Source: a virus
Direction: 5' to 3' (one strand)
Virus record (IMG/VR): IMGVR_UViG_3300042398_000969
Span: 96,001-160,000 of that record
DNA length: 64,000 nucleotides
The notes below the pieces were generated by a model, which ran no database searches, was not told the DNA's origin, and saw nothing but the letters and a program-made list of their open reading frames with translations. Below, piece after piece: positions 9,259 to 48,261 of the stretch. Both the position numbers and the translations under genes were made by a program. How positions within the stretch are numbered: position 1 is the stretch's first letter; each line of letters opens with the position of its first letter.

Positions 9259-9279
9259 CGGGGTACAAAAAGTACCCCG
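9259..9279 (-). terminator. Intrinsic terminator hairpin
   Basis: CGGGGTAC-5nt-GTACCCCG followed by TTTGTATTT on the minus strand. Confidence 0.7.
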
Positions 9280-9307
9280 AATGCCTGACCTTGTGATTAG
9301 TTTATTG

Positions 9308-10153
9308 TTAAAATTTGGTTCCGCAATGTGGACAGAACTTATGTGTGTCTTTCTTTCTTTTGCTACCACACTCTGCGCAATATGTGACCAAATCCTCCCT
9401 AGTTTTCAATTTAGTTGATTCTGGCTTGATTTTCCACCAATTAGTGGTTGATGGCCAAGTATTAAATGAAGTGTTGTCATATGTAAAGGATTGACCAGAA
9501 ACCGAACCTTTTTCTACTCTACCAGTTTCGAGACTTTTTTTACCTATTGGTTCATTGTATAAACCTTTATTTTTAATATCCCTTAAGATTGAATTAGTAT
9601 TTATACCACTTGTATATGTTGCGTTATTGTAAAACGCGGTACCAGTACTTGTTGTGGTAAAAGTCCCGTGAGTTGGTATTGATGTACCGCCTAAGGTATT
9701 ATGCGTTGTGTATGTATATGGTGAACCTGTATTTATCCAAGCTGGATTACTAATTGTTAGTGTAGAACTACCGCTTAAATAAGTTGGTGTAACAATTTCA
9801 TTATAAAACTTTACTGTTACATCGCCATTATTGGCAATAGCTTGTTGTACTTCTTCAGTATCACCATTTACTGCGTATGTTTCAAACAAAAACTTCTTTG
9901 CCTCGTCAAGATACCTTTCGAGGAAAACACGTTCACCTGGACGAAGTATAATACCATTACCAATGGAATTACCATTCATCTCGATTTTTGCTAAAACTTT
10001 ATTTTGTGTGGGATTGTAAAGTTCGATTTCGAACTCATCACCGTTATTAAGATAAACGGTATCAACGTGCTGTTTTAATCTTTTTTTACTTTTAGTAATG
10101 AAAGATTGTGGTACAGCGAAACCAGTTGTGTTAACTGAAATTCTTCTGTTCAT
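9308..10153 (-). CDS. Hypothetical protein: beta-sandwich-like N-terminal domain, T/S-rich linker, C-terminal double zinc ribbon
   Basis: FEIELYNPTQNKVLAKIEMNG..GIILRPGERVFLERY; C-terminal CAECG..FCPHCG. Confidence 0.75.
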   Translation of the reverse strand: MNRRISVNTTGFAVPQSFITKSKKRLKQHVDTVYLNNGDEFEIELYNPTQNKVLAKIEMNGNSIGNGIILRPGERVFLERYLDEAKKFLFETYAVNGDTEEVQQAIANNGDVTVKFYNEIVTPTYLSGSSTLTISNPAWINTGSPYTYTTHNTLGGTSIPTHGTFTTTSTGTAFYNNATYTSGINTNSILRDIKNKGLYNEPIGKKSLETGRVEKGSVSGQSFTYDNTSFNTWPSTTNWWKIKPESTKLKTREDLVTYCAECGSKRKKDTHKFCPHCGTKF

Positions 10154-10159
10154 TTTTCC

Positions 10160-10248
10160 TTATATTTTTTTTGTATTTGAACCCGAATTCGTTGGTATCA
10201 ATTCCAACTCAAATGCCTCAAGGACACTTCGACTTCAACCACAAGGTC
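10160..10248 (-). promoter_or_regulatory. Structured 5' leader of the 9308..10153 gene
   Basis: About 95-nt leader, GC-richer than other intergenic DNA, with stems GTTGG/CCAAC, ATTTGA/TCAAAT and GTGTC/GGCAT; its first 13 nt are complementary to the 3' UTR. Confidence 0.5.
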
Positions 10249-10271
10249 TATTATAAGTATATGTAAATTAA

Positions 10272-10301
10272 TAAAAAAAGGGAAGCCTAAAAGACTTCCC
10301 T
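10272..10301 (-). terminator. Intrinsic terminator after clpP
   Basis: AGGGAAG-N9-CTTCCCT followed by a T run on the minus strand. Confidence 0.75.
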
Positions 10302-10327
10302 CCACACACAAAAATGGACACACAAAA

Positions 10328-45674: not shown

Positions 45675-45712
45675 ATAAAAAATCGCGACACCTTCATAAA
45701 AAAGAGTCGCGA
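45675..45712 (-). terminator. Terminator hairpin after nrdA
   Basis: TCGCGAC..GTCGCGA followed by a T run on the minus strand. Confidence 0.65.
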
Positions 45713-45721
45713 AATTTAAAT

Positions 45722-45812
45722 AGTGACTTGACATTTACACCCTTCATTAAATCAAGTCCTGGATGCTCAAGGTACGCCTTGACGACAGTTAGACTTTGAG
45801 GGTGCCACCCAT
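45722..45812. ncRNA. Candidate structured RNA downstream of nrdA
   Basis: Stems GACTTGA/TCAAGTC, TCAAGG-TACG-CCTTGA, AAGTC/GACTT and CACCCT/AGGGTG in a GC-rich island. Confidence 0.4.
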
Positions 45813-45816
45813 TATC

Positions 45817-48261
45817 TTAAGATCCACACCCCTCACATTCAAATGGGGAATCCGTTGGTCTTTCTGTTGTCATAACAACCTCCGGAGTTTCTTCACTTAT
45901 AATAGATTTTTGTGTTGTCTGATATGTAACCGATTGTAACGGTGATTCAACTGGTTTGTTGGTTGAAGTATCGACACCTAATCCTTTTATTGGATCTACT
46001 GCAGAACGAGTTCTTAGGTAGTACATACCGGTTTTTAAACCAAGTTTCCAACCAAATAAGTGTGCTGCTAATAATTTTGGTTTTGTTGCATTATCAATGA
46101 ATAAATTCAAAGATTGTGACTGATCGATAAACACACTCCTATTTGCAGCCATTTGTAAAATTCTCTTCTGAGACATTTCCCAAACAGTCTTATACACTTC
46201 TTTGATTTCAACCGGTATTTCTGGGATATTTTGAATTGAACCATTTTCCATGATTAACTTCTTTTTAAGATCATCATTCCATAAGTTCAATTTTAATAAC
46301 TCATTAACCAGGTGTTTGTTAACAACAACGAATTCACCACCTAATGTTCTTCTTGAATACATGTTAGTTGTAAATGGTTCAAACGCTTCGTTGTTACCAA
46401 GGATTTGTGCTGTTGATGCTGTTGGCATAGGAGCAATTAACAAAGAATTTCTAACACCATTGTTAACAACCTCTTTTCTTAATTTTTTCCAATTCCATCT
46501 ACCAGATAAATCTTTATCTTTTAATCCCCACATTTCAAATTGGAATATACCCTTTTCAATAGGTGAACCAACAATAGATTCATAAGGACCATATTCTTTT
46601 GCTAAATCATTTGATGATGTCATAGCAGCAAAATAAATCGTTTCGAAAATATCCGTTTGTAATTTATCAGCTTCTTCTGATTCAAATGGTAGTCCTAACA
46701 TACAGAATACATCAGCTAAACCTTGAACACCTAAACCAATTGGTCTGTGTTTAAAATTAGAATTTTTAGTTTCTTCTGTTGGATAGAAATTTAAATTAAT
46801 TACATTATTCAAGTTCTTTACAACTTGATATGTGTACTCATATAACATATTGTGACTGAATTCACCATCAACAATATATTTCGGTAACGCGATAGATGCT
46901 AAATTACAAACAGCTTGTTCAGTTGGTGAACTATATTCAATAATCTCAGTACATAAATTTGAAGATTTAATAGTGCCTAAATTCTTTTGATTTGATTTGT
47001 AGTTAGCTGGATCTTTATATAACATATAAGGTGTTCCAGTTTCTATTTGTGCAGTTAAAATTGCGTCCATTAACTTTCTAGCCTTAATTGTTTTTCTAGC
47101 TAAACCTTGTTGTTCGTAAGATTCATATAATCTAGTGAATGCTTTATCTTCTGGACTATCATATGCATCAGATAAACCTGGGGCTTCGTCTGGAGAGAAT
47201 AACGACCAATCACCATCTTGCTCAACACGTTGCATAAACAAATCTGGTGTCCACATAGCTAAGAATAAATCTCTTGCACGCATTTCTTCTTTACCATGAT
47301 TTTTTCTTAAATCAATAAATTCAAAAACATCTGCATGCCATGGTTCTAGATAGATAGCAAAAGATCCTTTTCTTTTACCACCTTGATTAATCCAACGAGC
47401 AACTTCATTATAAGTCTTCATCATCGGTAGAAGTCCATCGGACATACCACCGGTTCCTTTAATATACGCACCTTTAGCTCTTACATCATGAACGTGAAGA
47501 CCAATACCGCCAGCCCATTTAGAAATCTTTGCAACGTCTTTAATTGTATCAAACAATCCATCAATATCATCACCCTTGTTTCCAATTAAGAAACAAGATG
47601 ACATTTGTGCTCTACGTGTACCAGCATTAAATAATGTTGGTGTTGCGTGAGTATAAAAATGTTGTGATAAATCATCATAAATTCTAAGTGCCATTTGTAC
47701 ATCACCACCACAAATACCAACGGCAACTCTCATATACATATACTGTGGTCTTTCAACAACTCTTTCACTAATCTTTAATAGGTATGATCTTTCTAATGTT
47801 TTAAATCCAAAATACTCAAAATCAAAATCTCTATTAAAAACAATTGCACCATCAATCACCTCCTTATTTTCCATAACAAACTTGTAAACACTATCATCAA
47901 TTAGCGATGATTCCTTACCAGTTTTTGGTTCAACAAATGAATGTAGTTCTTTAATTGCTTGAGAGAATTTCTTTGGTGTTGTTTTATGTAAATTAGTAAC
48001 CGCCAATCTCCCCGCTAACTTTGCATAATCTGGATGTGTTGTTGTCATAGAAGCTGCTGTCTCTGCTGCTAATGTATCCAACTCTGTTGTAGTGATCCCA
48101 TTATAAATTCCTTGAGTTACTTTTAATGTAATAAAAGTTGGATCAACATAATCCATGTTTAAATCTTCACAAAGAGCACTAATTCTTTTAGTGATCTTGT
48201 CATATCTCATTTCTTCTAACGTACCGTCTCTCTTTAATACTTTCATTTTTCTCTTATTCAA
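45817..48261 (-). CDS. nrdA: Ribonucleoside-diphosphate reductase alpha subunit (class Ia, ATP cone)
   Basis: ATP cone VLKRDG, THATPTLFNAG, SSCFL, NQGGKRKG, SNLCTEI, MPTASTAQ, GMYYLR, C-terminal CEGC. Confidence 0.97.
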   Translation of the reverse strand: MNKRKMKVLKRDGTLEEMRYDKITKRISALCEDLNMDYVDPTFITLKVTQGIYNGITTTELDTLAAETAASMTTTHPDYAKLAGRLAVTNLHKTTPKKFSQAIKELHSFVEPKTGKESSLIDDSVYKFVMENKEVIDGAIVFNRDFDFEYFGFKTLERSYLLKISERVVERPQYMYMRVAVGICGGDVQMALRIYDDLSQHFYTHATPTLFNAGTRRAQMSSCFLIGNKGDDIDGLFDTIKDVAKISKWAGGIGLHVHDVRAKGAYIKGTGGMSDGLLPMMKTYNEVARWINQGGKRKGSFAIYLEPWHADVFEFIDLRKNHGKEEMRARDLFLAMWTPDLFMQRVEQDGDWSLFSPDEAPGLSDAYDSPEDKAFTRLYESYEQQGLARKTIKARKLMDAILTAQIETGTPYMLYKDPANYKSNQKNLGTIKSSNLCTEIIEYSSPTEQAVCNLASIALPKYIVDGEFSHNMLYEYTYQVVKNLNNVINLNFYPTEETKNSNFKHRPIGLGVQGLADVFCMLGLPFESEEADKLQTDIFETIYFAAMTSSNDLAKEYGPYESIVGSPIEKGIFQFEMWGLKDKDLSGRWNWKKLRKEVVNNGVRNSLLIAPMPTASTAQILGNNEAFEPFTTNMYSRRTLGGEFVVVNKHLVNELLKLNLWNDDLKKKLIMENGSIQNIPEIPVEIKEVYKTVWEMSQKRILQMAANRSVFIDQSQSLNLFIDNATKPKLLAAHLFGWKLGLKTGMYYLRTRSAVDPIKGLGVDTSTNKPVESPLQSVTYQTTQKSIISEETPEVVMTTERPTDSPFECEGCGS

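Follow-up and report, generated by a model that had tools for sequence, protein, structure and literature searches.

Predicted pairing between the two ends of a phage mRNA persists across a large gene family through complete sequence turnover

In the hok/Sok system, the 5' end of a type I toxin mRNA pairs with its 3' end, an interaction known as the fold-back (fbi-tac). The product is a small toxin, and the closed mRNA stays translationally inert until it is activated by trimming at the 3' end. Pairing between UTRs is also described outside toxin systems. The Bacillus subtilis hbs mRNA is protected by a 14-bp helix between its 5' and 3' UTRs, which keeps nucleases from attacking the leader (Braun, Durand & Condon 2017, PMC5737220), and this pairing is not conserved among close relatives (reviewed in PMC7821165). 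In the icaR mRNA of Staphylococcus aureus, pairing by the 3' UTR both covers the ribosome-binding site and generates a site for RNase III, turning the mRNA off (Ruiz de los Mozos 2013, PMC3868564). More generally, RppH and RNase E require single-stranded 5' ends, and 5' structures stabilise mRNAs (PMC3997798). Our literature search found no described end-paired phage mRNA.

We analysed a 64,000-nucleotide stretch of DNA (the window) that is part of a 169-kb IMG/VR virus record. It comes from a very large freshwater phage and contains a gene on the minus strand in which, as in hbs and icaR, complementary segments are present in the two UTRs. In the phage gene, the pairing between them bears the marks of selection. 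The segments GACCUUGUGGUUG (10248-10236) and UAAUCACAAGGUC (9299-9287) form 13 contiguous pairs, a helix that we call P1, and its two non-Watson-Crick pairs are both G-U on the mRNA strand. A first-pass annotation, made from the sequence alone, had proposed this end-to-end helix, and recomputation returned the same 13 contiguous pairs at the same coordinates. The partner strands lie ~940 nt apart, the 3' arm being located in the 3' UTR. The features of the unit, all on the minus strand, are as follows:

10277-10303, minus strand: intrinsic terminator of the upstream ClpP-like gene, a 12-pair stem followed by a U-tract
10254-10261, minus strand: TATACTTA box, a putative -7/-10 promoter element
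10236-10248, minus strand: 5' arm of P1, GACCUUGUGGUUG, located where the mRNA is predicted to begin
10228-10237, minus strand: 5' strand of helix P2, adjacent to P1 (coaxial position) with a 2-base overlap
10213-10227, minus strand: hairpin P3 (GUGUC, loop, GGCAU), 10227-10223 pairing with 10217-10213
10209-10212, minus strand: junction UUGA between P3 and P4 (UUGAG with the next G)
10191-10208, minus strand: hairpin P4 (GUUGG, 8-nt loop, CCAAC), 10208-10204 pairing with 10195-10191
10178-10190, minus strand: junction GAA (10190-10188) and 3' strand of P2 (10187-10178)
10154-10177, minus strand: A-rich unpaired linker with an invariant, Shine-Dalgarno-like UAAGGA (10161-10157)
9308-10153, minus strand: ORF of 281 aa (Ig-like beta-sandwich, linker, zinc ribbon)
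9287-9299, minus strand: 3' arm of P1, UAAUCACAAGGUC, starting 8 nt past the stop codon
9250-9279, minus strand: the gene's own intrinsic terminator (CGGGGUAC, loop, GUACCCCG, U-rich tail), stem 9279-9259

The box, the flanking terminators and their spacings fit a single transcript that would carry both P1 arms. The upstream terminator leaves only 28 nt for the transcript start, and the TATACTTA box ends 5 nt ahead of the first paired base of P1. The predicted 5' end was placed from that terminator and from the conservation of the box, a TATAyTTA-type element being found 5-7 nt upstream of P1 in 54 of the 62 unique relatives. A sigma-70 scan at the gene returned no consensus promoter. At the other end, the gene's own terminator begins 7 nt past the 3' arm in the window, and the corresponding gap is 0-8 nt in all unique relatives of the window's class (59/59). 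Among the relatives examined for the box, P1 is 12-16 bp long, and the spacer between the stop codon (9310-9308 in the window) and P1 is mostly 4-15 nt. Both elements that the first-pass annotation had placed around the helix, a promoter-like box before the 5' arm and a terminator after the 3' arm, were located, the box at 10261-10254. With a box before P1 and a terminator after it, the predicted 5' terminus would adjoin the terminator stem, and the anatomy of the unit implies that the stop codon and the start-codon linker would both exit at the P1/P2 junction. When full-length mRNAs are folded, the Shine-Dalgarno stretch is entirely free of pairs in the minimum-energy structure of the window's mRNA and in most of the 66 folds.

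Within the window alone, the length of P1 is at chance level, as 13 bp is reached in 24 of 1000 shuffles. Its duplex energy is unremarkable (86/1000), and P1 is not exceptional among the window's ORFs, 6 of 61 having a 5'/3' helix of at least 13 bp. The region has 25 inverted repeats of P1-like size, and the window's further near-matches to the motif of the P1 arms (among them 23646 and 49829) are inside coding sequence and at chance level. Since the window-only statistics are at chance level, the reality of P1 rests on its relatives. The motif AGGCAUUYGRG, which the annotation had noted as following in both UTRs, turned out to be a chance recurrence (2 matches found versus 2.0 expected): the 5' copy consists of the P3 3' strand plus the junction, and the 3' copy of spacer and terminator stem, the latter lacking conservation in relatives. 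Other complementarities were noted around this and neighbouring genes. A 16-nt, 94% complementary AT-rich inverted repeat (9218-9233/10261-10276) links the promoter region of the P1 gene to the start of the downstream gene and is likely a composition effect. Other window genes, too, have 5'/3' flank complementarities of 14-16 bp (13829-13844/13398-13413 and 15107-15120/14172-14185), which are AT-rich and weak (-9.6 to -11.4 kcal/mol).

Across 66 loci of the window's class, with protein identities of 57-80%, the ~95-nt leader is much better conserved than the protein and the 3' arm follows the stop codon, with neighbouring genes, promoter-proximal DNA and terminator sequences all differing. In most of 67 unique loci, the best 5'/3' helix takes up one and the same register. 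The majority of positions between x=-2 and x=+10 show 84-100% pairing, with lower values of 63-65% for x=+8 and x=+10. Outside x=-3..+10 there is a sharp drop, to 11% at x=+11 and, on the upstream side, to background. Altogether, 90.7% of P1 cells are paired, compared with 84.6% after shuffling, a value that none of 500 shuffles raised to the observed one, and with 27-45% when the strands are slid. Double changes are found at x=-2 (G-C 32, A-U 29) and at x=+6 (G-C 39, U-A 17, G-U 3). One locus, sister to the window on the protein tree (L010), has A-U where the window has G-C, which we read as a recent compensatory change within the window's own clade. In unconstrained folding with RNAfold, P1 (at least 8 of 14 pairs) belongs to the minimum-energy structure of 64 of the 66 full-length mRNAs (880-1217 nt).

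Mismatches of the two strands are asymmetric: P1 shows 86 G-U versus 25 A-C across relatives. Together with the adjoining helices P2-P4, which are 98.4% paired (~40% when slid), this asymmetry argues that selection on P1 acts at the RNA level, as the first-pass annotation had supposed from the two G-U wobbles in the window. The closing of the mRNA around a structured leader, also proposed there, is likewise borne out by the pairing in relatives and by the full-length folds.

The annotation had suggested looking for flank complementarity and covariation in homologues, and the outcome was positive well beyond the window's class. A strong helix (-12 kcal/mol or stronger) is present at the same two places in 85 of 116 distinct homologous loci, which fall in separate clades. 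In distant homologues, these places are 87-109 nt ahead of the AUG and 5-23 nt past the stop codon. The arms of the end-to-end helix come in at least seven versions with no sequence relation to one another, including GGUGCCCACC, GCCUCGUGUGG, UGCCUUUUACCG, UCUCACUUUGUU, UAUAGCUGUUC and UUAUGAUUUUAGUG, with energies of -13 to -30 kcal/mol. The GCCUCGUGUGG type measures 11-19 bp, the version formed by AUUGGGUGCCCACC and GGUGGGCACCUAAU reaches -25.7 kcal/mol (-29.6 in a 16-bp relative), and two huge phages, LR756500 and LR756502, carry the UCUCACUUUGUU and the UUUAUAGCUGUUCG helix, respectively. Across loci, the length of the long-range helix ranges from 9 to 20 bp. P1 and the leader structure are, thus, well supported by their relatives at the level of comparative sequence analysis, and an end pairing kept through complete sequence replacement points to a real and rare closed mRNA of bacterial type.

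The same comparison bears on whether the arms could be a DNA-level inverted repeat, such as the ends of a mobile cassette or a recombination site, or else a chance match. The gene's neighbourhood differs between phages, conservation begins and ends near the repeats, and the window-only helix, being at chance level, would suit a coincidence. However, the promoter box and the terminator lie outside the repeats and yet always accompany them, no transposase or recombinase is present, and the arrangement is single-copy in the window and in the examined part of the genome. A repeat acting as DNA would not account for the excess of G-U over A-C, for adjacent helices that are clearly RNA, or for a complementarity that survives total sequence turnover, the repeat having been fully replaced in other clades. 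We therefore consider this explanation extremely improbable.

Some clades, including the Lak phages, yielded no long-range helix, the start codons of the latter being uncertain owing to recoding. Clades without P1 have a local hairpin of 7-8 bp at the same 5' position, followed by the same leader, or, as with the Lak phages, nothing clear. A paired 5' terminus beside a Y-shaped domain is the common denominator of the clades.

Several loci depart from the window's arrangement in other ways. The LR756500 locus (L164) has two 5'/3' complementarities, UGUUAAGGU/GCCUUAACA and UCUCACUUUGUU/AACAAAGUGAGA, which follow the same order on both sides, so that they either cross in a pseudoknot-like manner or are mutually exclusive. 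In three loci (L140, L142 and L154), the GC-rich 3' arm runs directly into a U-run (UAAUUUUU or UUCUUUUU) with no separate hairpin, and the next gene begins within tens of bases of the arm. The long-range helix with its U-run might itself act there as the terminator hairpin, or the transcript might continue, in which case P1 may be away from the RNA 3' end. The 5' arm of L140, L151 and L154 can form a 5-bp local hairpin (e.g. AUUGG...CCAAU), apparently as a metastable alternative to long-range pairing. Finally, ~10-45 nt upstream of the 5' arm of L151 there is a sequence resembling the T-arm/acceptor end of a tRNA (GGTTCGAATCC...), and the 5' end of that mRNA may be made by tRNA processing.

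The further stems that the first-pass annotation had seen in the ~95-nt leader are present as P2-P4. RNAalifold and pair counts agree on a Y-shaped domain in which P2 encloses the hairpins P3 and P4. Both-sided changes affect 14 pairs of this domain, among them seven of the nine pairs of P2 and all five of P3, and P4 is mostly invariant, with two double changes. Hardly any variation is seen in the junction bases UUGAG and GAA; the UUGA columns are invariant or nearly so, and U(U/A)GAG is found in distant classes. A search of the leader (10154-10248) against Rfam 15 returned no match even at E-values up to 10. A covariance model of P2-P4 has one match in the window and detects the domain upstream of distant homologues (L140, 5e-7; L164, 7e-7; L151, L165, L154, L162 and L150, all below 1e-3), with a weak match in Lak phages (E 0.09). 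A resemblance to a hammerhead-like three-way junction was considered and dropped, as the core bases differ and no Rfam ribozyme matched. Elsewhere in the window, an intergenic element of higher GC content that lies downstream of coding sequence (45700-45830, minus strand) gave no match to the leader model at E<=1 and is probably a different RNA.

The 281-aa protein has the architecture that had been anticipated from its sequence, a beta-domain joined to a zinc ribbon. The AlphaFold2 model (pLDDT 81) assembles an Ig-like sandwich from residues 10-125 and 205-250. The linker is disordered, variable and S/T/N-rich, and the basic C-terminal ribbon is of the Cys4 type, its four cysteines being invariant in 64 sequences. 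Pfam searches returned sub-threshold zinc ribbons only, among them Zn_Ribbon_1 (PF13240) at the C-terminus (20.8 bits versus a cutoff of 25). No PHROG family was found for the protein, Foldseek against the PDB gave nothing at E 0.001 or better, a VIA-wide structure search retrieved generic Ig/MSP-like sandwiches only (Z 6.5 or less), the ESM Atlas gave unnamed viral clusters only, and a DNA search of the phage collection with the region gave low-complexity matches only.

The family itself is large: the protein has more than 2700 close homologues, and at 50% identity there are 2492 clusters. Uncultured phage contigs, up to ~400 kb long, are the source of most of them, and homologues are also present in Lak megaphages and in phages of 460-735 kb. 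At 32-37% identity, it includes Prevotella Lak phages (L167-L169) and LR7565xx huge phages (L164-L166, L170), extending to the largest known phages. In L039/L160 and L170, the protein continues beyond its ribbon into a C-terminal extension. This extension is SHOCT-like in L170, as it is in the best viral structure match, and the 3' arm is still close to the new stop codon. Among predicted structures, Foldseek matched uncharacterised proteins of giant eukaryotic viruses (E 1e-8 to 1e-9), namely pithovirus, marseillevirus, mimivirids, iridovirus ICP-18, nudiviruses and WSSV wsv390. On these models, the fold family may be common to huge phages and large eukaryotic DNA viruses.

The contrast between invariant junctions and covarying helices raises the possibility of an autoregulatory operator. 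The Y-shaped leader, with or without P1, would bind a protein, the simplest candidate being the zinc-ribbon product of the gene itself; this would repress or tune translation, and P1 would hold the platform in shape. Translation is repressed or tuned by protein binding in T4 gp32, RegA and ribosomal-protein leaders. Covariation is seen in the helices and near-invariance in UUGAG, GAA and the P4 stem, the leader lies upstream of one gene family across very distant phages and occurs once in the window, and the protein has a basic Cys4 zinc ribbon. However, the sandwich is of a generic Ig/MSP-like kind, structure searches found no nucleic-acid-binding relative, and the association between RNA and protein could reflect inheritance as one unit. 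Regulation of this kind, which is plausible and compatible with a stabilising role of P1, seems unlikely to us as the explanation of the architecture.

A translational switch was considered from the complementarity between the 5' arm and the ribosome-binding site. In nascent or 3'-truncated RNA, the 5' arm would act as an anti-ribosome-binding site (CCUUGUG with UAUAAGG) and prevent initiation, until it is displaced by the arm in the 3' UTR, whose Shine-Dalgarno-like sequence would be the stronger decoy, such that only complete transcripts would be translated. RNAalifold predicts this pairing when given the leader alone, alignment column 9/98 is occupied by G-U 28, U-A 14 and G-C 7, and addition of the 3' arm raises the modelled unpaired probability of AAGG from 0.57, 0.48 and 0.18 to 0.83, 0.81 and 0.87. 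Some complementarity of the same kind appears in sequence-unrelated classes too, albeit with empirical p-values per class of 0.04-0.26 (Fisher's combined p 0.02-0.03 over four independent classes) and of 0.12-0.44 in the local-hairpin class. Against the switch, one pair covaries and five never vary, the minimum-energy fold of the window-class leader alone uses another weak partner, and the accessibility of -12..+3 in the window hardly shifts (0.86 to 0.87). We hold such a switch to be quite unlikely.

The adjacency of P1 (12-16 bp) and P2 (9 pairs) could alternatively indicate a processing site. Stacked on each other (~23 bp), the two helices would be cut by RNase III or another double-strand nuclease, and cleavage would excise or inactivate the mRNA, as with the icaR 5'/3' UTR duplexes, which are RNase III substrates (PMC3868564). 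RNase III takes about two turns of nearly continuous double-stranded RNA, and P1 alone offers 12-16 bp, ~23 bp being reached only if stacking on P2 is assumed. Against cleavage, helix length is not constant (9 to 20 bp), clades with only the 7-8-bp local hairpin retain the same leader, and a gene with its own promoter-like box and terminator has no need of excision. We found no pointer to either processing or circularisation, and a cleavage site is, in our judgement, very unlikely.

We favour an end-protected mRNA, because the paired 5' terminus is common to the clades and because the 5'-end requirements of RppH and RNase E, together with hbs, provide precedents. P1 would join the 5'-most nucleotides of a single-gene mRNA to its short 3' UTR, in the interval that separates stop codon and terminator hairpin, which would place the entire ORF in the loop of an end-paired RNA. 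The 5' terminus would be buried beside the terminator stem, leaving nucleases and pyrophosphohydrolases that need a single-stranded 5' end without an entry point, and 3' exonucleases would likewise be denied entry. The A-rich linker and its Shine-Dalgarno stretch would remain single-stranded for translation, and protection would be limited to complete transcripts. We give even chances to this reading, that of a monocistronic, end-paired mRNA stabilised by its buried 5' terminus with an open ribosome-binding site. From these observations, we infer the transcript ends, the stabilising effect and a factor binding the Y-shaped leader. A stabiliser alone leaves the near-invariance of the junction bases across deep divergence unexplained, and this near-invariance suggests that a further factor is bound, perhaps the zinc-ribbon protein that the gene encodes. 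The 281-aa protein is, in this respect, a good candidate for the partner of the leader RNA.

The geometry would also permit a functional bacterial analogue of the eukaryotic closed loop. The stop codon is 4-15 nt away from P1, and ~25 nt separate the start region from P2, such that the P1/P2 junction beside the terminator would hold the two regions. Closure could then work in one of two modes: either only complete transcripts would be licensed, the 5' arm otherwise masking the start region, or terminating ribosomes would be returned to the same start site. We regard this analogy as distinctly doubtful.

The gene family in which the end-paired architecture persists numbers more than 2400 protein clusters from large and huge phages. 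The comparison also brings to light a new structured leader RNA, absent from Rfam and tied to a widespread phage protein. The turnover of the paired sequence amounts to a natural series of compensatory mutants, and the end-protected mRNA that we favour would offer a clean system for the effect of mRNA closure in a cell without caps or poly(A) tails.

Compared with the known systems, the phage mRNA shares with hok the 5'-3' pairing and a 5' element that may have an alternative internal partner. It differs in encoding a 281-aa widespread phage protein, in that no antisense RNA was seen and in a closed form that looks translatable. The analogy with hok and aapA drawn in the first-pass annotation consequently fails, the product being no small toxin and the Shine-Dalgarno stretch being predicted open in the closed state. 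icaR resembles it in UTR-UTR pairing within one mRNA that involves Shine-Dalgarno-like and anti-Shine-Dalgarno-like sequences (PMC3868564), but in the phage mRNA the partner of the 3' arm is the 5' terminus, and the predicted folds show an open ribosome-binding site. In stabilisers of the ompA-leader type, a 5' stem-loop lies at or within a few nt of the 5' terminus (PMC3997798); the clades without P1 have exactly such a local hairpin, whereas in the window the partner is ~940 nt downstream. There is also a likeness in form to hbs, a short, highly expressed mRNA with a structured leader, a strong Shine-Dalgarno sequence and a ~14-bp helix between its UTRs (PMC5737220). Unlike that helix, the phage helix starts at the predicted first nucleotide, lies by the terminator and adjoins a conserved three-helix junction, and its pairing has withstood full turnover of the sequence across a huge phage gene family.
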